From contig OZ245040.1 of assembly GCA_965224195.1 (NCBI GenBank), forward strand, positions 992,001-1,056,000: a stretch of DNA of 64,000 bases, given 5' to 3'. The position numbers and the translations under genes were made by a program. Of the stretch, positions 2,202-64,000 are shown one piece after another; position 1 is the first letter of the stretch; each line of letters starts with the position of its first letter. The notes beneath the pieces were generated by a model, which saw only the letters and a list, made by a program, of their open reading frames with translations, ran no database searches and was not told the origin of the DNA. The stretch comes from Nitrosopumilus sp. Its GTDB lineage: Archaea; Thermoproteota; Nitrososphaeria; Nitrososphaerales; Nitrosopumilaceae.

Positions 2202-2623
2202 TAAACTTGTCTCTCGATTTCTTCTTTGATGCTTTGCATTGCTTGTTCTGTTCCGCTTTTGATGTGTTTTTTAATAATACCTGTAAACATACCCATCATA
2301 CCTGTCAGTTTGATGTCCCAATATGTTGAAAGTATTATTTTTTCGTTTTTGGTGGTTAATGATACTATTTTCTCACCATCAATTATTCCTTTGGTGAATC
2401 GTGCTTCAATTTTCTCTTTAGGGTAAATTTTTACTTGTTGTAAGCATTTTTGATCTTTAAATGCAATTGTAACTTCTCTATTGATGATGTTTCCTTCTTT
2501 TGAAATATTCTTGACTTCTTTGGTACCTTTCCAAAATTTTGGCTCATTATCTATATCTGAAACAATATCCCACACTTTCTCTATTGATGCATTAATTTCT
2601 ACTTCAACTTGGATTGTAGCCAT
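2201..2623 (-). CDS. SRPBCC / polyketide cyclase-like (START fold) protein
   Basis: N-terminal IEINASIEKVWDIVSD..P.FW signature; 140 aa. Confidence 0.8.
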   Translation of the reverse strand: MATIQVEVEINASIEKVWDIVSDIDNEPKFWKGTKEVKNISKEGNIINREVTIAFKDQKCLQQVKIYPKEKIEARFTKGIIDGEKIVSLTTKNEKIILSTYWDIKLTGMMGMFTGIIKKHIKSGTEQAMQSIKEEIERQV

Positions 2624-2680
2624 AGAATGAAATCAACTATTCCGCATTAAATATATTAGATTCCTACAATGTTTCAAATA

Positions 2681-2759
2681 GACTGTGATCGGTAACATGC
2701 CTAAAATCCGGAACATTAACTCCAGTTCCAATGGCGTTTGCCATTCTTCGGTCACAGTC
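2681..2759 (+). ncRNA. Candidate structured small RNA (unassigned)
   Basis: 11-bp closing stem GACUGUGAUCG/CGGUCACAGUC enclosing hairpins GGAAC/GUUCC and AAUGGC/GCCAUU; GC-rich relative to flanks; TATA-like TTAAATATA about 26 nt upstream. Confidence 0.5.
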
Positions 2760-2778
2760 ACTTAAAATTTGAAAAAAA

Positions 2779-2994
2779 ATGAAACCAACAAAATACATGC
2801 CAAAAATTGAAACTTTAGATGGTGCAGGTTTTTGGAAAAATGCATATGCTCATCAACGAGGGAAATTATTAAAAAAAGTCAATGTTCCTGAAGATCAAAT
2901 TGTTGAATTAGTTAACAAAAAGTACATGGAGATTCCTGCAGCATTAAGATATGAAATTGAAACAAGTGGGATTAATAAAAAAGATTTACAATGA
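2779..2994 (+). CDS. Small hypothetical protein (start may be 2797)
   Basis: 71-aa ORF with normal codon usage filling the intergenic gap. Confidence 0.7.
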   Translation: MKPTKYMPKIETLDGAGFWKNAYAHQRGKLLKKVNVPEDQIVELVNKKYMEIPAALRYEIETSGINKKDLQ

Positions 2995-3034
2995 AATCCG
3001 AAAATCATTTTAACGGGAGAAATTAGGTTTTATC

Positions 3035-3364
3035 ATGTCTACGATAACTTACGATGATTTTGCAAAGTTGGATATTCGAGTCGCAAAAATTATTGCAACT
3101 GAACCAATTGAAGGTAAATCTAAAATTATCAAAGGTAGAATTGATTTGGGAAATGATGATCAACGTGATGTAATAATTGGAGGAGCGCAATATTATCAAC
3201 CTGAAGATATAGTTGGAAAAACTGTTATTGTAATAGCAAATCTTGAACTAAAAAAAATGGCTGGAGTTAAATCAAATGCCATGTTGTTGGCAGCTGATGT
3301 AGATGACAAGCCTTTCTGGTTAACTGTAACAGAAGATGTTCCTTTAGGAAGCCCAATTAAATAA
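3035..3364 (+). CDS. tRNA-binding OB-fold protein (Trbp111/CsaA/MetRS C-terminal-like)
   Basis: ITYDDFAKLDIRVAKI ... NLxxKKMAGVxSNAMLL. Confidence 0.9.
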   Translation: MSTITYDDFAKLDIRVAKIIATEPIEGKSKIIKGRIDLGNDDQRDVIIGGAQYYQPEDIVGKTVIVIANLELKKMAGVKSNAMLLAADVDDKPFWLTVTEDVPLGSPIK

Positions 3365-3425
3365 TTTAATTTAAAAATTATTTTTCAAATTAAAATTAAT
3401 AAAAATAGATTTTTGACTTGCAAAA

Positions 3426-3986
3426 TTAATCATAAATCATTAATTCTTTTTCTTCTAGTAATGAGTGTAAATTGTTCACAGAACGATACACATCTTCTTC
3501 ATGTTTAGCTCCTGTACAGACAAGTTTTCCTGATGAGAATAACAAAATGACTGTTTTTGGATCTACCATTCTGTGAATGAGTCCTGGAAATTGTTCAGGT
3601 TCATACATACTTCGTGGTAATGTTCTTGCAGCTTGCTTCAAATGGATTTTTCCACCTAAATTGATAGATGCGACAATATTTTGAATTGTCACCACTGCAT
3701 TTTTTTTGACCTTAATTCCTCCTTTTCGAAGATTCTGCACTACTGTTTTTACTGCCTTTTTCGCCATTTCTTCAGATTTGGAACCAGTACATACCATTTT
3801 ACCTGAAGTGAAAATTAGTGTCGCTGTTTTTGGGGTTTTTAATCTGAACACTAGTCCTGGAAATTGATCCGGATGATATTCCACATCTGGAAATTTCCTA
3901 GTAATGTCATTCAAGTCCATTTTTTGCATTACGTCTGCAGAAGCTACAACATTCTCTACACTCACGATAGGTCTTGTTTGTGGCAT
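3426..3986 (-). CDS. tbp: TATA-box binding protein
   Basis: Two repeats of NVVAS...YxPxQFPGLxxR...LIFxSGKxVCTG. Confidence 0.98.
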   Translation of the reverse strand: MPQTRPIVSVENVVASADVMQKMDLNDITRKFPDVEYHPDQFPGLVFRLKTPKTATLIFTSGKMVCTGSKSEEMAKKAVKTVVQNLRKGGIKVKKNAVVTIQNIVASINLGGKIHLKQAARTLPRSMYEPEQFPGLIHRMVDPKTVILLFSSGKLVCTGAKHEEDVYRSVNNLHSLLEEKELMIYD

Positions 3987-4118
3987 ATTCGGTTTTTTGT
4001 CTTTGAACTATAATAAAAGCACTCTCCATTATTTACTTCCAAATACCCCTTTTTCAAATTATTGTGAATTCTGATCTTTGAATTTGAGAACAATGTTTTA
4101 ATTTGGTTCTAAGGGATT

Positions 4119-5249
4119 TTGATTCTAGTGAATTTTACAAATTTTGATTTTGATCAATTGTTTTCGATGAGCGATGACTCTAATCCGATAATGATGTTGG
4201 TATGGATTCTTCCGATAATTCTTTTTGTATTTTATGGGCAACAAATTCAACTATTTGTTACTTCGCGAGAAATTAAAAAAGGGATTAAAAAATTAGAAAA
4301 TTTTAGAGAACAATCTAGAACTGAATTAATTAATTATGTTAAAAATAATTTAAAAGCAAAAGATGATCCTGTAAAAAAAATTGATAAATTTTTGGATTAT
4401 TTCACTATAATGCCTGTGGATATGGATCCTAATGGAATTGTTGACAAAGTTAGACATACAGTAAGATCTAGAGATGATTATACTCGAGAACATGTGAAGT
4501 CACTTTCTCCTGAAATGTCTGATGTTGAATTGACAAAAGTCCAAACTTTGCTTGAGATTGCATCATCACTTCAATTAATTTACAAAATTGTCAATCACAT
4601 GTTCTTAACTGCTAAAAAACAAAACAACTATCCCTTGATTTTACCTCTACAAATGATTCTTCCTTTCATAATGGAGCAGGCAGAGGCAATGAGCGATGCA
4701 ATTTCTGCATTTAAAACAGGTCAACCTGTAGGGGATGGAATCGGTTCAATGGTTGTTGGGAAAATGATGCTAAATAACGAAAAAGAAACTGTTGCTTTAC
4801 AAACATCTCTTGCAAAAATAGATTTTGAAGATAGAAAATTATTTCTTTTAAAAGCTGAAGGTCCTGGTTCAACAGTAGGTAGACCTGCAGATGGTTTAGA
4901 GAAAATTATCTCTGAAAATAAAATTAATGCAATAATTATGATTGATGCTGCATTGAAAATGGAGGGTGAAGATTCTGCATCTATTGCCCAAGGTTTTGGT
5001 GCTGCTATTGGGGGAATTGGAACAGAACGATTTCAAATCGAAGCAGTGGCAACAACTAACAATATCCCAATATTTTCTATTGTAGTAAAACAATCTGTTA
5101 AAGAAGCCATCACTTTGATGACAAAAGATATTGCTGATACTGCAGAAATTGTAAGATTACAAGTAAATGAAATGATTATTGAAAATACCAAACTTGGTCA
5201 ATCAGTTGTAATAATTGGTGTTGGTAATACATCTGGAGTTCCACAATGA
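4119..5249 (+). CDS. Conserved archaeal DUF1512-type protein
   Basis: N-terminal TM; PVDMDPNG, GDGIG, IDAALKMEGE, GAAIGG and IGVGNT motifs. Confidence 0.8.
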   Translation: MILVNFTNFDFDQLFSMSDDSNPIMMLVWILPIILFVFYGQQIQLFVTSREIKKGIKKLENFREQSRTELINYVKNNLKAKDDPVKKIDKFLDYFTIMPVDMDPNGIVDKVRHTVRSRDDYTREHVKSLSPEMSDVELTKVQTLLEIASSLQLIYKIVNHMFLTAKKQNNYPLILPLQMILPFIMEQAEAMSDAISAFKTGQPVGDGIGSMVVGKMMLNNEKETVALQTSLAKIDFEDRKLFLLKAEGPGSTVGRPADGLEKIISENKINAIIMIDAALKMEGEDSASIAQGFGAAIGGIGTERFQIEAVATTNNIPIFSIVVKQSVKEAITLMTKDIADTAEIVRLQVNEMIIENTKLGQSVVIIGVGNTSGVPQ

Positions 5250-5428
5250 TTTTCTCCAAGAAAAAAATTACAACTGAATACACTGTAGAACAATGTACAA
5301 AATGTGGTACTTTGACTAAAAGAAAATTCAATAATGGCGATGTCTTGTTTGCAGAACTCTCAAAATGTACTTCTTGTGATGGACTTGCAAGGATTGAGAA
5401 AATTTTTGGTGAAACAATAGAGCAATAA
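5246..5428 (+). CDS. Small Zn-ribbon protein coupled to the DUF1512 gene
   Basis: CxxC...CxxC; ATGA overlap with upstream stop. Confidence 0.75.
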   Translation: MIFSKKKITTEYTVEQCTKCGTLTKRKFNNGDVLFAELSKCTSCDGLARIEKIFGETIEQ

Positions 5429-5434
5429 TTTAGA

Positions 5435-5548
5435 TTACTCTGTTTTGTATTTTACATTACATGCTGGACAAAACCATGTTGCAGCTTCCCCTTGCTCTCT
5501 AAACATAAATTCGCCACATTTTGGGCATGCTCTGACTTCTTCACTCAT
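5435..5548 (-). CDS. 37-aa CPxCG zinc-ribbon microprotein
   Basis: MSEEVRACPKCGEFMFREQGEAATWFCPACNVKYKTE; immediately downstream of map. Confidence 0.7.
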   Translation of the reverse strand: MSEEVRACPKCGEFMFREQGEAATWFCPACNVKYKTE

Positions 5549-5562
5549 GTTTTCATGCTTTT

Positions 5563-6459
5563 TTATTCGGCCCTGGTTGTTACGGTTACTCCGTTCTCAT
5601 TAGGAATGAATGTGTGTTCTGCTTGTGCTACTTTTTGTTCATTAACTTCGATTAACACAGGATATGCTTGAACTGCTTTTTTCTTTATTAGAAAATCTAA
5701 TAGTTCACGTGCCTCCTTTTCCTCCCATTTTTTTGTTAACCATCTTAGGGCAAATGGCAACATGTTACAATTCTCCCAAATGAAATCAAGTAGTCTGTCT
5801 GCCTCATCATTTTTTGTTTTCTTTCTTGAATTTAATGCAAAAATATTTTTTATATTTCCATTTCTAACAAATCCTCCTGCTTGCTCTGTTGTTACAAATG
5901 GCTCACATGCATAAGCTGAATTCTCTGAAAGTGAAAATCCACCAATTGACCAAATATTTGGAATTGATTTACCTGCATGTATGGTATATTGATCTAATGA
6001 ATGTCCACTAAGATTTGCAATTGGTTTGAAACCCATTTTTTTAATTGTTGTTTCAATAGTTCGCCCAATATCACTTGCTTTCACTCCCGTTTTTATCATT
6101 GACATTGCATTCCCTAATGCTTCTTCAGCTGCTTGAACTAATCCGTCAAACTGTGCATCATAACAAACAGTTACTGCTGTATCTGCAATGTATCCATCAA
6201 TTTGCGCTCCAAGATCAATTTTTACTAAATCTGTATCTTTGATTGTAATTGGATCATTTGGTTCTGCAGTATAGTGAGCTGCAATTTCATTAATACTGGC
6301 ATTTACTGGAAATGCACATTTGGCATCTCTTTTTTTAATTTCATTTTCTACTTCTTCACAAATTTCAAAGACTGTTTTACCTATCCAGTCTTTGGCTCGT
6401 ACCATCTCTCTTACTTCAGCTGCAATTTTACCTGCTTTGATGTATTGCTCTGTTTGCAC
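5563..6459 (-). CDS. map: Methionine aminopeptidase type II (probable GTG start at 6459)
   Basis: AAHYT, DLG, DTA, LSGH, CEPF and AQAEHT motifs; the longer ORF-track extension overlaps tRNA-Pro. Confidence 0.95.
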   Translation of the reverse strand: MQTEQYIKAGKIAAEVREMVRAKDWIGKTVFEICEEVENEIKKRDAKCAFPVNASINEIAAHYTAEPNDPITIKDTDLVKIDLGAQIDGYIADTAVTVCYDAQFDGLVQAAEEALGNAMSMIKTGVKASDIGRTIETTIKKMGFKPIANLSGHSLDQYTIHAGKSIPNIWSIGGFSLSENSAYACEPFVTTEQAGGFVRNGNIKNIFALNSRKKTKNDEADRLLDFIWENCNMLPFALRWLTKKWEEKEARELLDFLIKKKAVQAYPVLIEVNEQKVAQAEHTFIPNENGVTVTTRAE

Positions 6460-6531
6460 AATCTCGATCTTGAATTTGCCTTTAAAATGATTATCTGTGA
6501 AGCTTAAATTGGGCAATTTTCTGGTTTTACT

Positions 6532-6608
6532 GGGATCGTGGTCTAGCTTGGTATGATTCTGCGTTTGGGACGCAGAGGTCGCGAATTCAAATTTCGCCGA
6601 TCCCACCA
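6532..6608 (+). tRNA. tRNA-Pro (UGG), intronless, CCA encoded
   Basis: Acceptor GGGATCG/CGATCCC-A-CCA; anticodon arm CTGCG-TT TGG GA-CGCAG; T arm GCGAA-TTCAAAT-TTCGC. Confidence 0.96.
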
Positions 6609-6747
6609 TCATCTTCTTATTATCAAATCATATCTATATCCAATTGCCGAGCAATGAGGAAGAGTTAGAGAAATGACTTTGAATGAAGTAAACTAATTGA
6701 GTCTGAGCTCCGGCACGTTTTTATCAATTCTTAGGTTTTTTGTTTTA

Positions 6748-6993
6748 ATGAACTTTGAGAGGCGTGATATCGTTTTGATTGTTGGGATTTTCTTTGTTGT
6801 CCTCGGTATTACTCAATACGTTCCATTTCACTATTCTGCATTGATAGGAGTTGGATTTTATTTTGCAATCAAAATATATGTTGAAAAACGACGAAAATCT
6901 ATTAAAAATACTATTGGAGATGGAATCTGCATGGAATGTGGCTCTAAAATTGTTCAGGCAAAATGTCCCCAATGTGACTATTCTCAAGAATGA
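6748..6993 (+). CDS. Small membrane protein with C-terminal Zn ribbon
   Basis: Two TM segments then CMECG...CPQC; ATG at 6748 preferred to TTG at 6697. Confidence 0.7.
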   Translation: MNFERRDIVLIVGIFFVVLGITQYVPFHYSALIGVGFYFAIKIYVEKRRKSIKNTIGDGICMECGSKIVQAKCPQCDYSQE

Positions 6994-7131
6994 CTTCTTC
7001 GTACGCCTTATTACTGAAAAATTAAGATAATTTTTGATGGTTTTAAGATCTCTGACTTTAACAATTAGCTCAACTTTTCCTCAATCCCCTTCTAAAATGA
7101 GTCTTTTAGGCAACCAAATTAGGAATTAACA

Positions 7132-10100
7132 ATGAATCGTAACATACCACTAGTATTTTCTCTACTTCTTTTTGCAGGAATTCTTGCTCCGGCATATGCT
7201 CAAACTTCTGAAAATGTTGTAATTAATGAAGTCGACATTAATCCTCCTGGAGATGACTCTACAACTATTTCTGAATGGGTTGAACTTTACAATCCTACTG
7301 ATTTTGAAATTGATATTGGGGGATGGGAAATTGCATCCACCACTGTACTGAAAAAGACAATGACTATTCCACCTAATACTATGATTGAACCAGGACAATT
7401 TTTGACATATTCTTTTCAAAATGTTTGGTTCACTGATGCAAATGAATCAGTTGAACTCCGAGATGAAAATAATATCATAATTGACAAAACTCCTAATCTC
7501 ACTGATATACAAAATGATTTTACTTCATGGCAGAGACTCTATGATGGATATGACTTTGATAGTTCTGATGATTGGAAGTTTGTAGTTTCTACTGCAGGTT
7601 CTTCCAATGGAAAATTAATTCAAACACAAGAAATTAACGGTGTCACAGTATCTGTTTCATCAGAACAACCTTCTTACATCTTTGGTGATGTTGCGGTAAT
7701 TTCAGGTGCTGTTTCTGAAGAAGTCTTTATAATCCAACCATTTTTTCAACCTGAACAAATTATAATTTCTATTACTGGACCTAATTTCAATAAAATAGTT
7801 ACAATGTATCCTGATCTAGATCTTCAATATGAGACAACATTAAGTTTACATCAAGTTTTGGGAATAAACCAAGGATCGTATGATGTTATGGTAAGTTATG
7901 CTGGTTCAATTGATAGTACTAATTTTTCTGTTGGCACTGAAATTATAGAACAAGAAATCAAAGAAGAATCTGATCTTGGAATTTTTACTGATAAATCTCA
8001 ATATCTTCCTGGAGACCATGTTGATATTACTGGATTTGCCTCTGAAATAATACCATTTCAAGGAATGGTATTTACTATGACTGATGCTAGTGGTACATCT
8101 ATTGCAACTGGAAATCTTTTCCCAACTAATGGGGAATTTTCAACTTCTGTGTATCTTACTACTGTGAATCCTAATTATGGAACATATACCATCGAGGCTG
8201 AATATTCTGATAAACTTACATCGACTTCCTTTGAGGTAGTTGAGGATATCAAAGAAGATGTTCCAATATCTCTTTGGACTGATAAAGTAGCATATGGTTT
8301 GGATGATGAGGTCACAATAAATGGTAGATTAAATGATGTTTGGATTGGAAATTTGGATTTAGAAATTGTACAAACAAAACAATCTTCATCCACTACTAGT
8401 GATGCTGGATTTAAAATTTTAGATAGTTTAAAAATAATGGGTGATGGTTTATTTACTTATTCTTTTACAATTCCAGATAATGCCGTTAGATTAGGTGATT
8501 ACAAAATTACAGTATCTAAAGAAATTGGATCTGCCACAATCATTGCTTATGTTGTAGATGATCCAGAAAATTTTGTTCCTACCACTGACCCCTTAACTGT
8601 GGCGACTGATGCAGGTGTCTATGAATTTGCTGATACTGTTGTTGTTAGTGGTTTTGTTAAAGATCCATTTAGTAATTCAAGCTATGGTACTGGAACAGCT
8701 GTAAAAATTTCAATATCTCATGAAGATGGTAGCCCTCTAGAAATTGTTAATTTACAAGAAGCAAAAAGATTGGACGGTAGTGGTGTAATAGGATATGATT
8801 TTACAGCAATTCCTGAAACATCTGGACGATATTCTATTGAACTTGATATTACTAAAAACATCTTTACAGTTGGAAATTATGTTGTAAAGGCCCAATATTT
8901 GTCAGATGTGATGACTTCGACATTTACTGTTGTTGATTCTCTAGATTTAGATGGTGGTGCAATACTGTCTATTGATAAAGAAGTTTATGGTTTAGGTGAA
9001 ACTGTCCATCTTACAGGAATAATGCCTCGTACAGGCGATAATTCTGTTGTTATTTCAGTTACTAGACCTGATGGTACTAGAACTGATTATGGTGCAACTG
9101 TTGAGAATCAAAGATTTTCATGGTCTTGGGATGTTCCAGTATATGAAAAAATACCGTTATTGAAAGAAGATGACGGTCGTGACGTTAGGACATCTAATTA
9201 TGGTATTTACAAAATCAAATCTGCAATTGCTTCTGAAAGTATAGATATTTTCTTCAAAGTATCTGAAGATCCTAAAAATGATTCATTATCTACTACACCT
9301 CTTTTCGTAGAATCTGAAAAATCATTATACAAAGCAGGTGAAGACCTGAGAGTATCTGGTAATGTCATTTTGCGTGAACAAGGTGATGAAGGATTAGTTG
9401 TCAAAGAACGTGTACAATTGAGAATCATCGATGGCACATTCCCATTTAATTTAATCCATGAAGCAAATGTTTATTCAAATCAAGGTGGTGAATTTTCAAG
9501 TCTATTTGAATTACCTGCAACAATATTTTTAGAAGGTGAATACATTGTTCGTGCAAATTATGTAGGCACCCAAGCTGAATCCAGATTTAGTGTAGCAAAT
9601 GACTTTGTGTTTGGTATAGATGATGATTTAGCTTTATTGATTGGTACTGATAAAACAGAATATTATCTTGGTGATACAGTAACAATCTCTGGAAAACCAA
9701 ACAAATTAGTTTATTTGGAAAAATTTGAAGTTGGTGTACTTCAAAAATCTGAATCTGAAATAACTTGTGGCTCCTTTATTTGTGGAACAAATGCTGGCCC
9801 TATTACCACTATTTTTCCAGGTCCATCTGGTTCATTCATTCATGAATTTATAATTCCTGATGATGTATCTTCCATTGGTTTGTATGAAGTAAGTGTAGAT
9901 GCTGATTTTGATACCGGCTCTGTAACTTTTAATGTTCTTGAAAAATCATATACTCCAAAATTAAACACTGTAATTGAAAAACAAAATAGAATTGCAGATA
10001 AAACAATTCCAATTTTTACTGAAGAAAAAACTACTGACAGTATAACCCTTGCTCCAAGAGTTCTAAGTGGATCTTTGATTACTCCTACTAGAGGTGACGA

Positions 10101-13455: not shown

Positions 13456-14109
13456 ATGAATCAAAAACTACAATTGAAACTCCATCCTAAAATGAAAATC
13501 GGATTACAAGGAATAATCCCTGGAGGTATGTCTGTACAAGATTTTTCTGCTGTCACAAAAATAAATTCTTCTGATTCTAAAATAATTTTAGATGAATTTG
13601 TTAAAAATGATATTGGAAAAAAACAAGATAATTCATATTATTTTGAAGAGGGGGATAAATTAAAAATTGCAGTAATGTTATTGGAAAAAGGTTTTCCAAT
13701 TGATGAAATTTCTGTTGCTTTGGATTGGAGGAATTTTGAAGGGCTAACTGCTGAAATATTATCTGAAAAGAATTTTGCAGTAATAAAAAATATGATGCTA
13801 ACAAAACCTAGAATGGAAATTGATGTGGTGGGTATTAGACTTGGTGTTGCAATTTTGATTGATTGTAAACATTGGAAACGTAACAGCCCATCTGCCTTAT
13901 CCACTGTGGTAAAAAAACAAATTGCTAGGACAAAACACTATGTTGAAAAAACTCCTGGAGCGTTGGCTGTGCCTGTAATTGTAACTTTGTATCAGGATAA
14001 AATCGATTTTATTGAGAATGTACCAATAGTTCCAATTTTTCAGTTTGCTTCATTTGTTGATGAATTTTATGGAAATATTGATCAAATGAAGACTATAGGA
14101 ACAGACTAG
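13456..14109 (+). CDS. PD-(D/E)xK restriction-endonuclease-like protein
   Basis: WRNFEGL...EIDVVG...IDCKHW. Confidence 0.75.
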   Translation: MNQKLQLKLHPKMKIGLQGIIPGGMSVQDFSAVTKINSSDSKIILDEFVKNDIGKKQDNSYYFEEGDKLKIAVMLLEKGFPIDEISVALDWRNFEGLTAEILSEKNFAVIKNMMLTKPRMEIDVVGIRLGVAILIDCKHWKRNSPSALSTVVKKQIARTKHYVEKTPGALAVPVIVTLYQDKIDFIENVPIVPIFQFASFVDEFYGNIDQMKTIGTD

Positions 14110-15841
14110 ATATAAATAATATCATACATCCAATCACAAACCCTTTGGTAATTTTTAATGAATTATCTAATGCTTTGGAATAATCTTCATAAATTCCCTG
14201 ACCCATTACTTTTACGTTTGATTCATTTTCTAAAATCTCAAATTTTGCTGCTGCGGTATTATTTTCTGCACTTTTTGCAATTTCAAAAAACCATTTTGCT
14301 AGTTTATCTGCACTTGTAATTAATCCTAATTGATAGTATCCATTTCTGTTCCTTGGTTTAACTGGTGCATAATGCGTATCTGATGTACAAATTTCAAGTA
14401 GTTGATAATCTCTTTTTGCAAAAATATCTATAATTTTCTCTCTGACTCCATTTTCCATATTGTTGGAATCTGCCCATCCTAAGAAATATTTTTTCTCATT
14501 AATTTTAAGACAAATAATTCCTAACCCTCCCATTCCCAAGTCTTCTGTCCATACATCCATTTCATCCGTATTGGCATAGCCAAACTCTATTGGGAAATTC
14601 TCTTTTGTAATTAGAGTATCCAAACATGATTTAGCAGCTTTTAGCATATCTTCTCCATCTTCTTTTGAAATTTCCTCACCCATTGCATTATGGGTATCCA
14701 CAATCAGGGTTCTTGTATAATTTCTATTATTTGCATACTGGACTATTTCTGTTTTCATGTAACTAGGAAGATCTTCCATACCTTGTGGTGATAATGATAA
14801 AAACAATAGTGGATTATTTCCAAAAAGTAAACCTGTCACTCTAGCTTTGTTTATTTGAACTGTTACTGGCTCTGTACATTGTATGCCCTCTTCTTTGACT
14901 TTACTATTCTCCAAATCCTTCAAAAATTTTTCAACTTCATTTCTTGATGGAAGATTCAATGCATGATCTGAAATACTGTGCATGACCATTGCTGATGATG
15001 ATAAATTTTTGTAAATTAGGTAGGGGATATTGCTTCCTCCTACGGGGTGATATGGTCCTGGATGTATCCCTGGTAATACCATTCTGAATTCTTTTTGGCC
15101 GTTTTGTGTTGAAAATTTTATTTGTGATGTGTCTATTTTGGTTTCACTTGAGCGTTCTTCCATCAGCATTTCGGCATCTTCAAAATCATTCCCTTGTGAT
15201 GCAAGATATGCTTGGATTGTTTTATGGGTGCTCTCCATTCCTGGTCTTCCTGCTCTATCTGTTACAAATGACCATACACTTGCAATAATAATAAAAGATA
15301 TCCCGTATCCTAATCCCACTGGCTCACTAAGTATCGAAATCCATAAATCTTGTGGAACTAATACCAAAAACATTGCTAGTGGTTGAATGAGACAAATGGC
15401 CCAAGCTTTTTTTAGACTTGCACCGAGAGTTGTAGTGTAAATCCCTATTCTAAAACCTGTAAAAAGTAATAATCCAAATGTGATGAAGAATAGTTCTAAA
15501 TCTTTTGATAAAACTATGCTTGAAAGTATTCCCATCAAAAGTGTAACAGTCCATAACATATTTCCAAAAAAAGATGAATGCAATGATTTTGAATATTCTC
15601 TCTTTTTTGCAAATCGTGAATCTAATAATTGTGTTAAAGATAATACTCCTAAAACAATTGGTAATCTGTACCAGTTTTCTTCAAACCCTAAATTTCCCAA
15701 ATATCCAAAATATGTAGCAAAAACTGTAACTGATGCTACTACCATTGAAACTACTAGTGAGAAATATTTTGATGATGGATTAACTAGAGTAAGGGAAAAT
15801 CTATTGTGTATATTTGAAACATCATCTATTTCTTGTTCCAT
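14093..15841 (-). CDS. DUF2070-family membrane protein
   Basis: Multi-TM N-terminus; HPGP, DTHN, DSNN and TSDTH motifs. Confidence 0.85.
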   Translation of the reverse strand: MEQEIDDVSNIHNRFSLTLVNPSSKYFSLVVSMVVASVTVFATYFGYLGNLGFEENWYRLPIVLGVLSLTQLLDSRFAKKREYSKSLHSSFFGNMLWTVTLLMGILSSIVLSKDLELFFITFGLLLFTGFRIGIYTTTLGASLKKAWAICLIQPLAMFLVLVPQDLWISILSEPVGLGYGISFIIIASVWSFVTDRAGRPGMESTHKTIQAYLASQGNDFEDAEMLMEERSSETKIDTSQIKFSTQNGQKEFRMVLPGIHPGPYHPVGGSNIPYLIYKNLSSSAMVMHSISDHALNLPSRNEVEKFLKDLENSKVKEEGIQCTEPVTVQINKARVTGLLFGNNPLLFLSLSPQGMEDLPSYMKTEIVQYANNRNYTRTLIVDTHNAMGEEISKEDGEDMLKAAKSCLDTLITKENFPIEFGYANTDEMDVWTEDLGMGGLGIICLKINEKKYFLGWADSNNMENGVREKIIDIFAKRDYQLLEICTSDTHYAPVKPRNRNGYYQLGLITSADKLAKWFFEIAKSAENNTAAAKFEILENESNVKVMGQGIYEDYSKALDNSLKITKGFVIGCMILFISSLFL

Positions 15842-26337: not shown

Positions 26338-27406
26338 AGATGAGTTGTGCAATTAGTCCAATTTGAGCATAATCTCAACATTTTCTAATCATAAGATCCA
26401 AAGCTAAGGCTGAATTATTTTCAATTCATGTTTAATTGCACAAAACTGGCAAAAAAACCAAAGCAATTTCTGCCAATAGCAGGACTAACTGTTCCACAGT
26501 TTGATTCCCCATACAAGGAAACAAAGAAAAATTACAAAACTGCAGAACAAAAGGGACTGTCCAAAAACAGAGAAAGGGACATTGGTGCAGGACACAAGTT
26601 TGACTTGTCCTTCAAAGGCAGAATTCTAATGTTTTTCATGTACTACAGAATGTACACAGCATATGACATGCCAGGGATGACATTTGATTTGGACAAACCA
26701 AACGTAATGAGAAACATCGGATGTTTGGAGCCTGCAGTGAAGCAGTCCATTGTAATTGCTGCCAAAAAATATGCAGACTCAAAAGAGATTAACGGCATGC
26801 AGGAACTGCAGGAATTCTTTCCGGAATTAGTTGCAATCACTGATGGCACAGAACAGCCCATCCCAAGACCAAAAAACAAAAAGAAAAGAAAGGCACGCCA
26901 TTCAGGCAAAAAGAAAAAGCATGCAGTACAAAATCAAGTCGCCATAAATCCTGATGGGATAACAATCCACAAATCTGCACATTCGCCTGGCAGCCATCAT
27001 GATTACGGAATTTACAAACCAAGGCATCCAACATTGTCTGAAGAGCTGCTGCAGTCTTATGATCCTGGATGTTTGGGGATGGAAAAGGACTTTCCAGAAC
27101 AGGCAAGTGTTTTGCCATGCAAGAAAAAGAAAGGAAAAAAATTGACTGTTGCTCAAAAGGAGTGGAACAGGATGCAGTCAAAAATTAGAATAAAAGTTGG
27201 ACGTGTCATTGCACAAGTCAGGCAATTTCGGATAAATCGCGATGTGTTTAGAAACAAATTATGCAGATATGATGTGACAAGTGAAATTGTTTGTGGGACT
27301 GTCAGTTTCAAGATTAAATGGAAAGAAGAATTCATTGCAATTCCATAAAATTAAGAATTAAATGACAGAAAAGTTAGATTTTTGTTTGTAATTACGCAAC
27401 TCATCT
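26338..27406 (+). mobile_element. IS5-family (ISL2-like) insertion sequence, about 1069 bp
   Basis: 18-bp imperfect TIRs AGATGAGTTGTGCAATTA (26338-26355) and TAATTACGCAACTCATCT (27389-27406), 16/18 match, enclosing a transposase; flanks CTA and TTA are not a matching TSD. Confidence 0.9.
26428..27348 (+). pseudogene. DDE transposase (HTH_Tnp_4 plus DDE_Tnp_4 type); frame open but catalytic Glu appears mutated
   Basis: GAGHKFDL, DGTEQPIPRP, SGKKKKH, HD; DPGCLG in place of DxGYxG; RIKVGR in place of RIxVEH. Confidence 0.85.
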
Positions 27407-27991
27407 TATAAGATGAAACATCATGATGCCATGAAAGACAAAGCTCATGACAAAATGTCTGATGCAGCAAAAGACAAAATGAAAATGAAATTATCTGACA
27501 AATCTGACCGTATCAAGGCAATGATCATGGACAAACATGACATTTCTGATGAGCGTAGAGAAGAAATCAAGATGAAATACATTGAGAAACATGGTGATCT
27601 GACTGACGAGAAAAAGTCTGAACTCAAAATGAAATTCAAAGATCATATGAAAAATATGAGAATGGAAATCTCTGATGAGCGAAAATCTTCAATTCATGAT
27701 AGACTAGCTGAGATGAAAGCCTTCAAGGCAGAACTCCGTGATAGAGCATCTGAAATGACTGACGAGGAAAAACAGGAACTTGGAGCAGAATTCATTGAAA
27801 AGGCAAAAGACATGCAATTAGCATGGATTTCCCCACGCACACAAATGACTGCCGGCATTGATGCTGGAGATGTAGAATGTAGAGAAGGATTTAGCCTGGT
27901 AATGAAAGCATCAAACGGTGTTGCAATGTGCCTTAAAGCAGATACAGCACTTAAGATGATAGATAGAGGACTAGTAGTTCCTGCTAACTAA
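27407..27991 (+). pseudogene. C-terminal part of a His/Met/Asp/Lys-rich helical thaumarchaeal protein, probably truncated by the IS
   Basis: Begins mid low-complexity region right at the IS end, with no signal peptide and no promoter space; ends in the SPRxQM...CREG..LVMK.S.G...C domain. Confidence 0.65.
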
Positions 27992-58432: not shown

Positions 58433-59455
58433 TTGAATGAAACAATCCAAAAAAATCGTGATTACAAAAAATATGTCATAGATTCAAAACTTCAATATTT
58501 CAAACCTCATGCTAGTAAAATAGAGAAAACATTTGCTGAAGAAATATCTTCAAGCTTGAATAGGAATTCTAAATTTATCACACCTAAATTTTTTTATGAT
58601 AAAAAAGGCTCTGATTTGTTTGAAAAAATCTGTACCCTTCCTGAATATTATCCTACACGAACTGAAATTTCCATTTTGAAGAATTTACAGACTGAATTAC
58701 CTTCATTTATTGATGATTCCTTTAGATTAGTTGAACTTGGTAGTGGTTCATCAGTGAAAACACGACTAGTACTTGATATTTTTACCAAAATGCAACAAAC
58801 TACAGAATATTTCCCAATTGACATCTCTGAAATTTTAACTGAAAGTTCAGAACAACTATTACAAGATTATGACAATCTTCGAATCACCGGAATTATTGAT
58901 ACATACGAAGGTGGTTTAGAATTTTTAAAAAATTATGATGATAAAAATAATCTTATTCTATTTTTAGGTTCTAGCTTTGGAAATTTTTCTCCTGCTGATG
59001 GCAAAATCTTTTTGGAAAAAATAAATTCTACAATGAAATCTGGCGATTTATTTTTAATTGGTTTGGATTTGGTAAAAGATTCACAAATTTTAGAATCTGC
59101 ATATGATGATACACAAGGTGTTACTGCAGAATTTAATCTCAATGTTCTGTCTAGAATAAATGATGAGCTTGATGCTGATTTTAATTTAAATAATTTTTCA
59201 CATTATTCTACTTACAATAAAGAGGATCAGAGAATTGAAATGTATTTGAAATCTTTAGTAAATCAGTCTGTTATAATTTCAAAATCTAATCTTTCATTAA
59301 ATTTAGAAAAAGATGAATTAATCCATACTGAATATTCTCATAAATATACTCTGGATCAAATTAAAACTCTTCTTGAAAGTACTGGATTCAAAATTAATCA
59401 TACTTGGTTAGATGAGAATACACATTTTTCATTAACCCTAGTCTCAAAAAACTAA
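58433..59455 (+). CDS. egtD: L-histidine N-alpha-methyltransferase
   Basis: PKFFYD..GS.LFE.I..LPEYY, ELGSG, GSSFGN, AYDD..GVT..FN, HTEYSHKY. Confidence 0.93.
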   Translation: MNETIQKNRDYKKYVIDSKLQYFKPHASKIEKTFAEEISSSLNRNSKFITPKFFYDKKGSDLFEKICTLPEYYPTRTEISILKNLQTELPSFIDDSFRLVELGSGSSVKTRLVLDIFTKMQQTTEYFPIDISEILTESSEQLLQDYDNLRITGIIDTYEGGLEFLKNYDDKNNLILFLGSSFGNFSPADGKIFLEKINSTMKSGDLFLIGLDLVKDSQILESAYDDTQGVTAEFNLNVLSRINDELDADFNLNNFSHYSTYNKEDQRIEMYLKSLVNQSVIISKSNLSLNLEKDELIHTEYSHKYTLDQIKTLLESTGFKINHTWLDENTHFSLTLVSKN

Positions 59456-60762
59456 ATATTTTCAGCACATCTGAAACCTGAGAACAACCATCTTTCATCT
59501 AGTCTGAAGAAATTTCTGTAACTTCCTCTAATTGACATCTTTGGTGTTCCAAAAGAACCTCCTCTCAAAACTTTTTGATTTGTAAACCATTTGTCATTAT
59601 ATTCGTCAAATCCTGACTTGAATCCTGGATATCCTGTATACTCTGATGATGTCCATTCCCAAACATCTCCAATCATTTGTTGACATCCTGAATTGCTTGC
59701 TCCATTTGGATATGCTCCTACTTCCAAACAGCCCCAATGATATGATTCAAGTAAATTACATTTATCATCAGTTGGTTTTTCATTTCCCCATGGGAATGTT
59801 GTTTTCTCTTGCTTGTCCTCATTCCAACAAGCGGCTTTTTCCCATTCAGCTTCAGTTGGGAGTCTTTTACCTGCCCACTTACAATATGCGTCTGCTTCAT
59901 AGAAACTTACATGACATACTGGTTCGTTTAGATTGATTTTTCTAATTCCTAAAAAGTCTCTTATGTACCATTCATCCTCAATTTTTTCCCAATACATTGG
60001 AGATTTCCATTTGTTTTCTTTGACTTTTTCCCATCCGTCTGATAACCAATATCGGTATGTCTCATATCCGCCGCTTTCCATAAATTCTAGATATTGTTTG
60101 TTTGTTACAGGAAATTTATCTATTTTGTAATCATTAAGATGGACCTTGTGTTCCGGTAATTCAATATCGTAACAAAATTCTTCTCCATTGTTTCCCATGG
60201 TGTATAATCCTCCTTTGATGTGGATTGATCTTCTTTCAATGTTTATCTGTTTTGTAATTCCATTTTTCTTTACAGGTCTGTATTGTTCTGCAAGTAAATG
60301 TTGTAAATCATACACTAAAAGTTCTTGATGTTGACATTCATGATGAAACCCTGTTATGATTAGTTTGATGGCATCTTCACTTAGTGTTTGAGTTTGAATA
60401 AATTTCTCAACTCTTTGATTTATTGTATTGAAATATTGAAAAATTTGATCAGTTGTTGGCCTTGAAACAACTCCCCTCAAACCTTTGTCATGAGGTACTC
60501 CAAATTGCTGATAATAGGAATTTAGATATTCTGAAAATTCTTTAGAGTAAAATTCATAATTTTTATCAATTTTGCTCATTATTGTTTCATAAATCCAACT
60601 TACATGTCCTAGATGCCACTTTGGTGGGCTCATGAAAAATGCAGTTTGAACTACAAAATCATCTTTTTCTAGAGTTTTTACTAATTCTAGTGTTCTACTA
60701 CGTGTCTCTTTAAACTGCTCTAGTAATGAAATTCCTGACTGCAACTCTGGATTGGAGGTCAA
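59452..60762 (-). CDS. egtB: Ergothioneine sulfoxide synthase (DinB plus FGE-sulfatase domains)
   Basis: SPPKWHLGH, HECQHQEL, RLPTEAEWE, GDVWEWT, YRNF, FSGFR. Confidence 0.93.
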   Translation of the reverse strand: MTSNPELQSGISLLEQFKETRSRTLELVKTLEKDDFVVQTAFFMSPPKWHLGHVSWIYETIMSKIDKNYEFYSKEFSEYLNSYYQQFGVPHDKGLRGVVSRPTTDQIFQYFNTINQRVEKFIQTQTLSEDAIKLIITGFHHECQHQELLVYDLQHLLAEQYRPVKKNGITKQINIERRSIHIKGGLYTMGNNGEEFCYDIELPEHKVHLNDYKIDKFPVTNKQYLEFMESGGYETYRYWLSDGWEKVKENKWKSPMYWEKIEDEWYIRDFLGIRKINLNEPVCHVSFYEADAYCKWAGKRLPTEAEWEKAACWNEDKQEKTTFPWGNEKPTDDKCNLLESYHWGCLEVGAYPNGASNSGCQQMIGDVWEWTSSEYTGYPGFKSGFDEYNDKWFTNQKVLRGGSFGTPKMSIRGSYRNFFRLDERWLFSGFRCAENI

Positions 60763-60970
60763 TATTGGAAAATTATGTTTTTTCTATTTTTATGTTTGTA
60801 GGTACTTTTACTGTGGGATATTCTCCCATCGGGTTTTGTCAGATCAGTTCAACACCCTGCCCTTTTGTTATTATACCATCCAAAATATTGCCCAAAAAAG
60901 GTTCAAGCCTTTACGGAATTGCACTCATGAGTAGAACACTTTATGAATGTCTGATTTGGAGAAAAAGAAA

Positions 60971-61654
60971 ATGAAAACTAGGCTTTTGATAATTTTACTT
61001 GTATTTGAAATGATGGCAATTGTAGGATTTATGCTTTCTGCATCTACGACGAAGATGTTGTTGGTTATCGCGGATGGTTAATTGATGGCAATTGTAGGAT
61101 TTTCTATGCTTTCTGCATCAGGACTGTCTTGTGGTATTCCTCTTTTTACAGAATCCTATGAAAGACATGACTTGCTATTACATGGAAAACTTGTTGAAAA
61201 AAACATTCCAGATTTCCTGTCCAACAAACACACTACTCTAATCTTTGATACAATCAAAGTGTACAAAGGAGAGTTTAGTAGCTCATTTACGATAAAAGCT
61301 GATCTTTCTTGGGATGATTACTATAGAGAGAGCGAAGAGTACATCTTGTTTGCAGATAAAGATGGAGATAACTATCTCAGAGAACTGTGTGTACCTGATT
61401 ATTTGGCATCTCCATCTATAGTTAAATTTCTTGATGATAATTCTTTTAAAACTTCAGAGGCTTATTTCTTGTATCTTCTGCTTCCAGAAGATGAATTAGA
61501 AGATGTTCACACTAGAATGAGTCTTTATACTGATTTGAACCGTGCTGAGAGACATAATGGTACTCCTTATCTGATTTATGCTAGCATTCTTGTCTTGATT
61601 GGAACAGGGATTTACTTTTTAGTGTATTTTCTAAAAAAGAGAATTAGAAAATGA
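60971..61654 (+). pseudogene. Secreted, C-terminally anchored protein (MKTRLLII...; possible TIMP/NTR-like domain) interrupted by a duplication plus insertion
   Basis: ATG 60971 reaches TAA at 61079-61081 within the insert; the same frame resumes at 61082 with LSCGIP...CVP and a C-terminal TM ending KKRIRK. Confidence 0.7.
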
Positions 61655-61896
61655 AAACATCTACTAAATTATCTTATCTGGGATTGATAGTGGCAACTAT
61701 CATGTTTTTTTATGGAATACTAGGAATAATTTCGGGGTTAGCGCCATTAATTATTGTGGGAATACCTTATGGGTTGGATGATATACAATTTATCGGAATT
61801 GCGATTCAGAATCTATTATCTGGCATAGTTCTTGTAATTCCTGGAATTGTACTGTATTGGAAATCTAAACTAATTAAGGAATTTTTAAGAAAATGA
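61651..61896 (+). CDS. Small two-TM protein
   Basis: Starts MKT, ends RK; ATGA-coupled at both ends. Confidence 0.7.
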   Translation: MKTSTKLSYLGLIVATIMFFYGILGIISGLAPLIIVGIPYGLDDIQFIGIAIQNLLSGIVLVIPGIVLYWKSKLIKEFLRK

Positions 61897-61965
61897 AAAC
61901 TAGACATTCTCATTAGGGGTTTTATCTAATTGGTTCGAGTCTCTGAATTTTATTCAGTAATAATT

Positions 61966-63420
61966 CTAGTATCCTCTTGCAAAGACTGGAACTGAAACAC
62001 TTTGTTCCTGACAATAGATGCATTTTTGGTTTGTATTTTCACTTCCAAATGGTATAACTCTGATTTCTGCTCCTGTTTCTTCTTTAATTTTTTCTTCACA
62101 TTCTAATTTTCCGCACCAAGGTGAATTGAAGAAACCACCTTTCTCAATTTTTGATTTAAAATTAGAATAATCAGAAATTTCTAGAGTGTTGTTTTCAGCT
62201 TCTTCTTTGGCTTTTTTTAGCATCTCTGCTTGGATTTCATCTAATATTGTGAGTATTTCCTCAGTTTCTGTAAAACTTAAACTAATTTTTTCAAGATTGT
62301 ATCTTTTTGCAACTATTATGCTATTTTTTTCAATGTCTTTGGGGCCTATCTCTATTCTTAATGGAACTCCCTTCATCTCCCAATCATTAAATTTGTAACC
62401 TGGGGATAATCCCTCTCTTTCATCTACATGTACTCTGATGTCTTTTGATTCTAATTCATTTTTGATTTCTTCTACTTTTGGAAGAACTGTTTCTTTCCCA
62501 TCATCATTTCTATAAATGGGAACGATTACTACTTGCATTGGAGCTACCTTTGGTGGTAAAACTAATCCCTTATCATCTCCATGTGCCATGATCATGGCTC
62601 CGATTAATCTCCAAGAGACTCCCCATGATGTTTGCCAAGCAAAATGCTCTACATTATCTTTGTCTGCAAATTTAACTTCAAATGGTTTTGAAAAGTTTTG
62701 ACCTAGGAAGTGGGAAGTTCCCATCTGTAATGCTTTTCCATCTGGCATGATTGATTCCATCGTAGTGGTATATACTGCTCCAACAAATTTTTCTTTTTCA
62801 CTTTTTTTGCCTGTTGTAACTGGAATTGCTAGTTCTTCTTCAACTGTATTTTTGTAAATATCTAAAATCTTCATTACTTCTTTTTCTGCTTCTTCTTGAG
62901 TGCTGTGGACTGTATGTCCTTCTTGCCATAAAAATTCTGAAGTTCTAAGGAATGGTTTTGTTGCTTTAATTTCTGCTCTCAAGGCAGTGTTCCAAAAGTT
63001 AATTTTTAATGGTAAATCTCTCCAGCTTTGAATCCATTTTGAATACAAAGTATATGCTAATGTCTCAGATGTTGGTCTTAATGCCAATCTATCTCCAATT
63101 TCATTAGTTCCTGAATGAGTTACCCAAAACACTTCTGGGTTGAATCCTGCAAAATGTTTTTGTTCTTTACCTAACAGTGATTCTGGAATTAGTATTGGTA
63201 AAAATCCATTTCTAATACCATTTCTTGAAAATTTCTTGTCAAATGTGCTTCTTAGGGATTCCCAAATTGAATATCCGTCTGGTCTGAGGACGATTAATCC
63301 TTTAACTGGGGCGTAATCTGCAAGTTTTGCCTTTAGAACTACTTGTGTGTACCATTCACTAAAATCATCATTCTTTGAAACTGTAATTCCTACGTCTTCT
63401 TTACCCAAACTAGAATTCAT
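61966..63420 (-). CDS. proS: Proline--tRNA ligase (archaeal/eukaryotic type)
   Basis: LRPTSE, FLRTSEFLWQEGH, TSWGVSWR, C-terminal FARGY. Confidence 0.97.
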   Translation of the reverse strand: MNSSLGKEDVGITVSKNDDFSEWYTQVVLKAKLADYAPVKGLIVLRPDGYSIWESLRSTFDKKFSRNGIRNGFLPILIPESLLGKEQKHFAGFNPEVFWVTHSGTNEIGDRLALRPTSETLAYTLYSKWIQSWRDLPLKINFWNTALRAEIKATKPFLRTSEFLWQEGHTVHSTQEEAEKEVMKILDIYKNTVEEELAIPVTTGKKSEKEKFVGAVYTTTMESIMPDGKALQMGTSHFLGQNFSKPFEVKFADKDNVEHFAWQTSWGVSWRLIGAMIMAHGDDKGLVLPPKVAPMQVVIVPIYRNDDGKETVLPKVEEIKNELESKDIRVHVDEREGLSPGYKFNDWEMKGVPLRIEIGPKDIEKNSIIVAKRYNLEKISLSFTETEEILTILDEIQAEMLKKAKEEAENNTLEISDYSNFKSKIEKGGFFNSPWCGKLECEEKIKEETGAEIRVIPFGSENTNQKCIYCQEQSVSVPVFARGY

Positions 63421-63571
63421 TGAATTAATTTAACTAATGAGCCTTTCGTGATGATTTTTATTTTAAAAACATCAGGATTCCAATCTGATCATCAAAATTT
63501 GCCAAAACTTGGTTGGAACCACAGCACTTTGATCACGGCAATTATAAATGACAGTCCTGTTTTGTGCTGTT

Positions 63572-64000
63572 ATGTTTGGAAAGGATATTTCCAATGTCTC
63601 ATATGATGATATTAAATCTCTTTTGGACAGCAAAATCCCTGAGAGTGATATTTTGGACTACAAGAGTAAAATGATGGATGATCAAAAACTAGTCAAACAT
63701 GTATGTGCATTTGCCAATACTCGTGGAGGGGATATTGTTTTTGGAATAAAAGAATCTGGCCATGGCGGACATCCCATAGAAATCAATGGACTGGATGCCT
63801 TTAATTTCAACAAGGAAAGACTGGAACAAATTATTCTGTCTAACATTGTGCCAAGATTGGATGTAAAGATAAAATCAATACCTATACCTGATTCTCAAAA
63901 AGTTGTTCTAGTTATTCAGGTGCCCCCTAGCTATCTAAAGCCACATCAAAGTAATTACTCTAAAAAAATTCTACAAGCGCTTTCAATTCGAGTCCGCTGA
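63572..64000 (+). pseudogene. Schlafen/AlbA_2-domain protein, frameshifted at A7 63962-63968
   Basis: ES..LDYK, AFANTRGG.I.FGI.E, KPH; removing one A restores SKKFYKRFQFES (YxR motif). Confidence 0.75.

Follow-up and report, generated by a model that had tools for sequence, protein, structure and literature searches.

A recurrent 13-nucleotide sequence at the gene boundaries of same-strand rows in Nitrosopumilaceae

We analyzed a 64-kb stretch of the genome of Nitrosopumilus sp. (assembly GCA_965224195.1, contig OZ245040.1, positions 992,001 to 1,056,000; the whole stretch is henceforth called the window), in which the 13-mer AGAAAATGAAAAC is found three times in a row of same-strand genes located between the housekeeping genes egtB and proS. 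Each copy sits at a junction where one reading frame stops and the next one starts. The original prediction regarded this row as an integron-like array, in which promoterless cassettes are inserted at the 13-mer. We consider instead, with roughly an even chance of being correct, that the 13-mer is an array-specific module for starting and coupling translation, which would have been passed on by descent and shuffled through ordinary recombination, either unequal or based on short homology. The three copies would then be the internal boundaries of a small, partly decayed, one-direction row of accessory envelope-protein genes. The module would comprise the spacer AGAAA and ATG-AAA-ACN and be a part of the translation-initiation region of the downstream gene; where genes abut or overlap, it would hold or touch the upstream stop codon as well, allowing coupled translation by termination-reinitiation. 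Such a module appears to be specific to the rows that follow members of a protein family with an NTR/TIMP-like predicted fold in Nitrosopumilaceae. Its copies, probably related by descent, would be carried before unrelated genes and reshuffled at the boundaries through duplication and recombination of ordinary kinds (unequal, or over short homology), and the direct repeats at each boundary would allow whole genes to be gained, lost or replaced precisely with no dedicated recombinase. The positions, registers, array specificity and homologies of the copies were observed, as was the lack of an integrase and of a shared hairpin in the sequences analyzed; how the motif acts in translation and how the rows recombine are inferences.

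The motif in the window and in related genomes

The three exact copies of AGAAAATGAAAAC are all on the + strand, at positions 60966-60978 (junction 1), 61646-61658 (junction 2) and 61888-61900 (junction 3), and the successive copies are spaced by 680 and 242 bp, exactly as the original prediction had it. Only 0.02 copies are expected in the window, and none of 100 dinucleotide-preserving shuffles reached three. The motif was also predicted to be found nowhere else in the window, and this was true even when one mismatch was allowed; with two mismatches, 18 matches were found against 10.4 expected. At all three junctions, the upstream frame reads R-K-TGA and the downstream frame reads ATG-AAA-AC, confirming the predicted reading, and each junction has one 4-nt overlap of the stop and start codons (ATGA at junction 2). 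At junction 1, GGAG lies 10 nt upstream of ATG. The junctions had been described as identical over 13 bp, which holds for all three, but a repeat search found that junctions 1 and 3 are identical over 17 nt. A near-motif at position 27474 was rejected, as it lies within an open reading frame (ORF) and does not represent a start.

The sequences related to the window were sought by one profile search of genome contigs with the alignment of the family to which gene 1, the first gene of the row, belongs. Four loci (L001-L004) were retrieved, of which the family members are all of a long-form branch (50-57% identity). Neither egtB, proS nor gene 2 was found within 10 kb of a family member in these loci, and the gene-1 family is present in four different neighborhoods. 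Exact copies of AGAAAATGAAAAC were detected in L001 (three; 13489, 15026 and 16139), L003 (one; 8618) and L004 (one; 10952), and none in L002, a Cenarchaeum locus with a G+C (GC) content of 0.55. With at most one mismatch, L001 has four sites, three of them exact (0.23 expected; 0 of 100 shuffles reached four), L003 has two (0.19 expected; 3 of 200 shuffles) and L004 has one (0.28 expected; 25 of 100 shuffles). All of the exact copies are at the starts of same-strand genes downstream of a member of the gene-1 family. Across four rows, all of the 12 boundaries match the motif at 11 or more of the 13 positions, and eight of them are exact; by orthology, the 12 boundaries collapse to eight or nine distinct junctions, approximately. 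Each of these rows begins with a gene that lacks the motif at its start. The long-form members heading an array start with MKY, MKC or MRY, whereas the window member, which is behind a junction, has the motif; the motif thus goes with the place in the row and not with the cargo.

The genes in these rows encode a BNR-like protein of 845 amino acids (aa), proteins of 515/376, 57, 311 and 108 aa, and a membrane protein of 204 aa. No cross-match was found among them in an all-against-all blastp search. Paralogy of the cargo was also discarded as a general explanation, as hhalign gave a probability of only 15.8% between the gene-1 family and the 515-aa protein of L001, and 0.05% between the family and the protein encoded at 27413-27988 of the window. 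Altogether, a scan of other Nitrosopumilaceae, as the original prediction proposed, found the 13-mer marking the gene boundaries of same-strand rows of unrelated genes in three other genomes.

Chance in an AT-rich genome, combined with coding constraints (an RK end in membrane proteins and an MK start in signal peptides), could be considered as the source of the motif. The GC content of the window is 0.337. Among the relatives of gene 1, 39 of 52 end in RK and 26 of 52 start with MKT, and junctions 1 and 2 are partly ordinary conserved coding sequence. However, neither the three copies in the window nor the four one-mismatch sites in L001 were reproduced by shuffling, and the non-coding halves match as well, over 5 nt before ATG at junction 1 and over 4-8 nt after the stop codon at junction 3. 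Moreover, L001 retains the motif even at junctions with an upstream frame other than RK-TGA, and six other 4-nt-overlap starts in the sequences examined are all free of it. AT content plus ATGA coupling, the ordinary account weighed in the original prediction, therefore fails to explain the motif in the light of the shuffles and these six overlaps, and we regard a chance origin as highly improbable.

Some of the copies share more than the motif itself. By blastn, positions 60941-60992 of the window matched 10924-10975 of L001 and 8593-8644 of L003 with 78.8% identity over 52 nt. The matching stretch in L001 and L003 is the boundary of a long-form member of the gene-1 family with the next gene. 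In tblastn, the frame reading ..LIWRKRK aligned with the C-terminus of the family member P0011 (22 aa, E-value of 0.066 against a 1.3-kb target). Thus, the putative remnant noted before junction 1 is a genuine relic of the 3' end of a gene of this family (60906-60970, + strand; reading ..SLYGIALMSRTLYECLIWRKRK and then TGA), and junction 1 is such a 3' end joined to a start of the MKT[RK]LLI type, with which the gene following the family member starts in L001 and L003. No second copy was found when all members of the gene-1 family were searched against the window by tblastn; a weak recurrent match at 51026-50919 was spurious, as it falls in the gene for deoxyhypusine synthase. Furthermore, junction 1 and those at L001 10954, L003 8623 and L001 16467 have ..ACTAGRCTTTTGATAA.. 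in common. The 17 nt shared by junctions 1 and 3, the 52-nt homology and the subset with ..ACTAGRCTTTTGATAA.. suggest that the copies are related by descent.

The row in the window ends with a stub of seven codons, MKTRHSH-stop (61893-61916, + strand), where 17 nt (AGAAAATGAAAACTAGA) are the same as in the stub ending the array of L004. In L004, the junction is followed by MKTRF and stop codons, and the junction together with the start of this stub is identical over 17 nt to junction 3 of the window. The two arrays are closed by near-identical stubs in unrelated chromosomal contexts. A stub at the array end, as predicted, is seen in these two of the four arrays; no motif with a stub was found at the ends of the L001 and L003 arrays, which end otherwise. 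L002 carries a GC-shifted, diverged version of the stub with 39 codons.

Start context, registers and breakpoints

The relation of the motif to the upstream gene varies in L001. The motif is in an RK-TGA overlap at 10949 and 16139. At 13489, the upstream gene ends with TAG, followed by a 3-nt spacer (AAA) and ATG. At 15026, the motif is read as ..IENEN by the upstream ORF, which goes on to a TAG located 11 nt inside the next gene. A related junction at 15207 comes after TGA with a 7-nt spacer. In addition, the 18-mer GGTGATTAGAAAATGAAA is common to two L001 junctions in different upstream frames. As the motif is kept in three upstream registers, it is the nucleotide sequence that is conserved, in a fixed position relative to the downstream ATG. 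The site was predicted to supply both a stop codon and a basic tail to the upstream gene; this is the case in the window but not in general, as 13489, 15026 and 15207 of L001 demonstrate. Judging from the sequences, we regard the motif as belonging to the downstream start and not to the RK-stop coding end. We also noted that the extended form TAGAAAATGAAAACTAG, found at the window junctions and at 15024-15040 of L001, has a stop codon in each of the three frames around ATG, and different upstream genes in L001 use different stops of this sequence.

Over the 12 array junctions, the spacing from stop to start ranges from -11 to +7 nt. GGAG or GGTG, which may pair with the 3' end of 16S rRNA, is placed about 8-10 nt upstream of ATG in six of the 12 junctions (in the window, only at junction 1). 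The motif is confined to the rows: in the 143 kb examined, it is missing from the six other 4-nt-overlap starts mentioned above (four ATGA and two TTGA), and from about 13 operon-internal starts outside the rows, which have GGAGGTGAT-type strings, other spacers and other second codons. Of the other long ORFs in the window, about 50 in number, none has an MKT start.

In prokaryotes, Nitrosopumilus maritimus included, neighboring genes are most commonly spaced by a 4-nt overlap, according to the part of the literature consulted (PMC12548453), and coupling by termination-reinitiation has been demonstrated in an archaeon with overlapping or abutting genes (PMC6728339, in the part consulted). The rows resemble such coupled gene pairs in their single direction, in the 4-nt overlap or spacing of a few nt, in the putative Shine-Dalgarno-like string that often lies inside the upstream gene, and in the unstructured start region. 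They differ in that one sequence of 13-17 nt is at every boundary of particular accessory rows in several species and is absent from other coupled pairs of the same genomes; the coupling itself is, for the rows, deduced from sequence.

If selection favored a single optimal context for re-initiation, the copies could have arisen independently, and the motif would take no part in rearrangements. The conserved block is exactly the start region, and most pairs of junctions are not conserved further out. The junction regions are unstructured, and the motif stays at ATG in all three upstream registers. On the other hand, the same genomes have further coupled or closely spaced genes with different start contexts, and we know of no reason in translation to keep G at the second position or to have Thr as residue 3. 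The extended similarity around ..ACTAGRCTTTTGATAA.. argues for common descent, as do the 17 nt common to junctions 1 and 3. Convergence on a start context is thus, in our opinion, rather unlikely.

The comparison between loci located two breakpoints at the motif. L001 and L003 share a 3.7-kb block with 88.9% identity, which on the right extends exactly to the final base of the motif copy at 13489-13501 of L001. Past the ATG region, the nucleotide identity drops to about 48% in the following 33 nt, with 39% identity between the proteins. The homology of L004 to L001 and L003 stops 2-4 nt after the motif. As the original prediction anticipated, both of the two synteny breaks among the fetched loci are therefore at the motif, 0-10 nt from its 3' end. 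Nevertheless, a breakpoint that leaves the genes intact can hardly fall outside the junction when the genes overlap. A further sign of exchange was seen in the tree of 57 members of the gene-1 family. The long forms are a single clade with full support (100/100) and no MKT start, while the MKT start in the short forms needs 14 changes, with well-supported branches requiring at least seven of them. P0012 starts with MKTKLLII and its sister P0015 with MKYFVILL, implying that the 5' part was exchanged between close relatives.

These breakpoints bear on a dedicated site-specific recombination, in which AGAAAATGAAAAC[TAGA] would be a crossover core of 13-17 nt for single-gene cassettes and the recombinase would be encoded elsewhere. 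In the widest form of this explanation, Nitrosopumilaceae would have a new kind of cassette system, with envelope genes inserted, excised and exchanged at a core that also serves as a stop codon (in up to three frames), a start codon and a coupling signal, whereby any ORF that is captured would immediately be expressed as part of the row; the exchange would depend on a recombinase elsewhere or on very short homology, and the stub that follows the last gene would represent the unoccupied end of the site. The same core bounds unrelated genes in four genomes, the homology between L001 and L003 ends at the last base of the motif, near-identical stubs close the arrays of the window and L004 in unrelated contexts, and the gene-1 family is in four neighborhoods. 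As an indirect indication, the best 120 of 3231 EgtB homologues gave no sign of a contig shared with homologues of gene 1 or gene 2. We nevertheless doubt the dedicated recombination, and the cassette system built on it appears to us just as doubtful, for the following reasons. No tyrosine or serine recombinase or other integrase family was found in the 57 window ORFs scanned (9 + 48, the latter being 48 of the 50 ORFs of at least 90 aa that end before 58400; a recombinase may be encoded elsewhere in the genome), nor was an integrase found in 44 of the 59 ORFs of L001-L004, where the Cas1 of L001 is a part of a casposon-like block. Similarity continues past the core in some pairs (the 52 nt above) and not in others, which looks like descent and decay. 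The motif drifts, with an MKT start in only one of six gene-2 relatives and in half of the gene-1 relatives. Finally, the gene boundaries are the sole viable breakpoints between overlapping genes.

An integron proper is defined by IntI, attI and attC and has been reported in Archaea as well (PMC9668308); neither 'Nitrososphaer' nor 'Thaumarchaeota' appears in the text of that paper. We found no attC-like hairpin or inverted repeat common to the junctions by folding or by the repeat search. Folds of 120 nt of DNA on both strands had z-scores of +1.07 and +0.63 at junction 1 and +0.31 and +0.11 at junction 3, so that neither exceeded the stability of shuffled sequences, and junction 2 has only a local 9-bp stem (-1.9 and -2.5). 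Rfam gave only a match to U8 below the threshold (23.6 bits against a gathering score of 41), which was judged to be chance. No protein or DNA match was found in a phage collection, and the motif string was found in the literature in unrelated contexts only. The rows are similar to integron cassette arrays in being rows of unrelated, same-strand, tightly packed single genes bounded by a repeat, with contents varying between genomes. They are dissimilar in that IntI is missing nearby, as are attC-like hairpins or imperfect palindromes, and in that a repeat of 13-17 nt overlaps the start codon. The integron-like mechanism of the original prediction is thus not sustained by the ORFs scanned and the junctions folded. 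The original prediction was right that no recombinase is visible in the window, as far as the scanned ORFs are concerned; the sole mobile-element gene among them encodes a DDE transposase (DDE_Tnp_4, 26428-27345), 33 kb from the array. Next to this gene, the ORF at 27413-27991 has a C-terminal Cys-containing domain shared with the L001 array protein encoded at 13494-15041 (24% identity over 187 aa).

The copies are hardly independent of one another, considering the 52-nt homology of junction 1 to L001 and L003 and the duplicated segment for a signal peptide in gene 1 (see below). Descent combined with local rearrangement at the flanks of the junctions makes a dedicated recombinase unnecessary. 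Several points weigh against a translation module spread by descent and ordinary recombination. Both synteny breaks coincide with the motif, as would be predicted for a recombination core. As the cargo genes are mutually unrelated, the module cannot owe its spread to duplication of whole genes, and our reading does not account for its placement before a new gene. Nor does a role in translation explain the retention of G at position 2 and of the ACN codon, or the lack of the module at other coupled genes of these genomes, and the four-base GGAG/GGTG is in just half of the junctions.

The genes between egtB and proS

The row is flanked by egtB (59452-60762, - strand), which has the Pfam domains FGE-sulfatase and DinB_2 and homologues named EgtB in their sources (92% identity in the closest relatives), and by proS (61966-63420, - strand; tRNA-synt_2b, HGTP_anticodon and ProRS-C_1). 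egtD (58433-59455, + strand; Pfam) is beyond egtB. The GC content of the segment between egtB and proS (0.31-0.36) is no different from that of the flanks. Imperfect inverted repeats of 13 nt (85% complementary) at 60945-60957 and 61897-61909 bracket the segment from junction 1 to junction 3; they are probably due to chance, given their length in AT-rich DNA. Just past proS, 63548-64000 of the window is a partial gene for a protein with an AlbA_2/Schlafen domain, which is frequent in defense or mobile contexts.

The first unit of the row (60971-61654, + strand) consists of a single frame, which an in-frame TAA interrupts at 61079-61081. Its first 36 codons (MKTRLLIILLVFEMMAIVGFMLSAS..; 60971-61081) encode an N-terminus like those of the full-length homologues (MKTRLLII..), and the remainder (61082-61654) is an ORF of 190 aa with an NTR/TIMP-like domain and a C-terminal transmembrane helix, ending in KKRIRK. 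Around the TAA, a segment for the signal peptide is imperfectly duplicated (61008-61119, + strand; repeat families D1 and D5) in copies about 72-75 nt apart: 61008-61030 recurs at 61080-61102, and 61030-61044 recurs at 61105-61119. Tandem Repeats Finder reported no clean tandem array in this segment. The unit is therefore not an intact gene, which corrects the original prediction, with the stop codon lying inside a rearranged, duplicated signal-peptide region. Gene 1 is probably a pseudogene, unless an internal start is used. By its sequence, it looks damaged in two places, and the whole row looks partly decayed. Gene 2 (61651-61896, + strand) encodes a hydrophobic, putative membrane protein of 81 aa with no known family. 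Besides itself, six homologues were found, of which one starts with MKT and four end in RK, and an Atlas search gave no informative look-alike (no match at 0.9 or above). With Pfam domains in the flanking genes, a signal peptide predicted for gene 1 and the hydrophobic product of gene 2, membrane or secreted cargo between egtB and proS was anticipated correctly.

In the protein collection, 62 relatives of the 190-aa ORF were found in addition to itself, none with a Pfam domain, and the four relatives named in their sources are all labeled as Nitrosopumilus or Nitrosopumilaceae. The full-length relatives (204-243 aa) consist of a hydrophobic N-terminal leader, a conserved domain, a C-terminal hydrophobic helix and a basic tail, and the long forms (327-341 aa) carry an insert. 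The Cys of ALSCG, right after the leader, is invariant across 53 aligned family sequences and may be at or near the mature N-terminus, as in NTR/TIMP-like modules. In the alignment to P0002, gene 1 of the window has about 16 residues fewer before the helix than its nearest relatives. An AlphaFold2 model of the gene-1 product, built with the 53-sequence alignment, had a mean predicted local distance difference test score of 83.1 and a predicted template modeling score of 0.70. Foldseek with this model gave 23 matches in the PDB with E-values of 1e-3 or below, including the NTR domain of PCOLCE1 (1uap, 8.4e-5), TIMP-1, TIMP-2 and the C-terminal domain of complement C3. The window protein has no Pfam match, and none of the 53 aligned members matched the Pfam models for TIMP or NTR at an E-value of 1 or below. 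As modeled, the fold of gene 1 is of the NTR type. We propose that gene 1 belongs to an unannotated archaeal family with a TIMP/NTR-like predicted fold, the members of which may be surface-anchored protease inhibitors.

Directly upstream of the array in L001 is a casposon-like block (1624-9748) that contains Cas1 (3355-4581, - strand), a C5 cytosine methylase and Vsr. A protein of 944 aa in this block (6495-9326) is PolB-like from its YxDTDS motif, which was read by eye. The right edge of the block coincides with the start of the homology between L001 and L003 (9787). The gene for the 845-aa BNR-like protein of L003 (8623-11160) corresponds to three ORFs (385, 91 and 349 aa) at 10954-13490 of L001, where it is either a pseudogene or an assembly error. 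In L002, an ORF of 2629 aa with many near-identical repeats of about 113 aa, resembling a giant surface-type protein, lies beside the family member (1413-9302, - strand).

Relation to other systems and significance

The vsp, vsa and vlp loci of Mycoplasma are families of variable surface proteins with a conserved 5' leader and signal-peptide module. The rows described here are similar to them in having clustered genes, of which the divergent mature proteins are placed behind a shared start region, and in the presumed recombination in or near the shared 5' part. The shared part is, however, far shorter in the archaeal rows, and the repeats are direct only, so that switching by inversion is impossible. 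Furthermore, the archaeal locus has no recombinase gene, and its proteins are not of one family.

Flexible or hypervariable genomic islands enriched in genes for the envelope and defense have been described in marine Thaumarchaeota (PMC3990693, in the part consulted). Like such islands, the row encodes accessory proteins that are secreted or in the membrane, is patchily distributed and has neighborhoods that differ. The insert in the window is, in contrast to the islands, only about 1 kb between two housekeeping genes, and a shared junction motif is not described in the consulted part of PMC3990693.

The accessory genes for the envelope are the part of the genome that faces viruses and grazers. 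Ammonia-oxidizing archaea are among the most abundant marine microbes, and the turnover of such genes in them is poorly understood. A sequence that marks the boundaries would be a search handle for mapping the rows, for timing the gains and losses of genes, and for testing exchange at the boundary. The NTR/TIMP-like fold of gene 1, if the model is correct, hints at protease inhibition at the cell surface. If the junction serves coupled translation only, the rows would be a neat but ordinary operon architecture. If it is also a crossover point, they would represent a device for capturing genes that dispenses with integron-type hairpin sites, and no earlier example would be known from the phylum.

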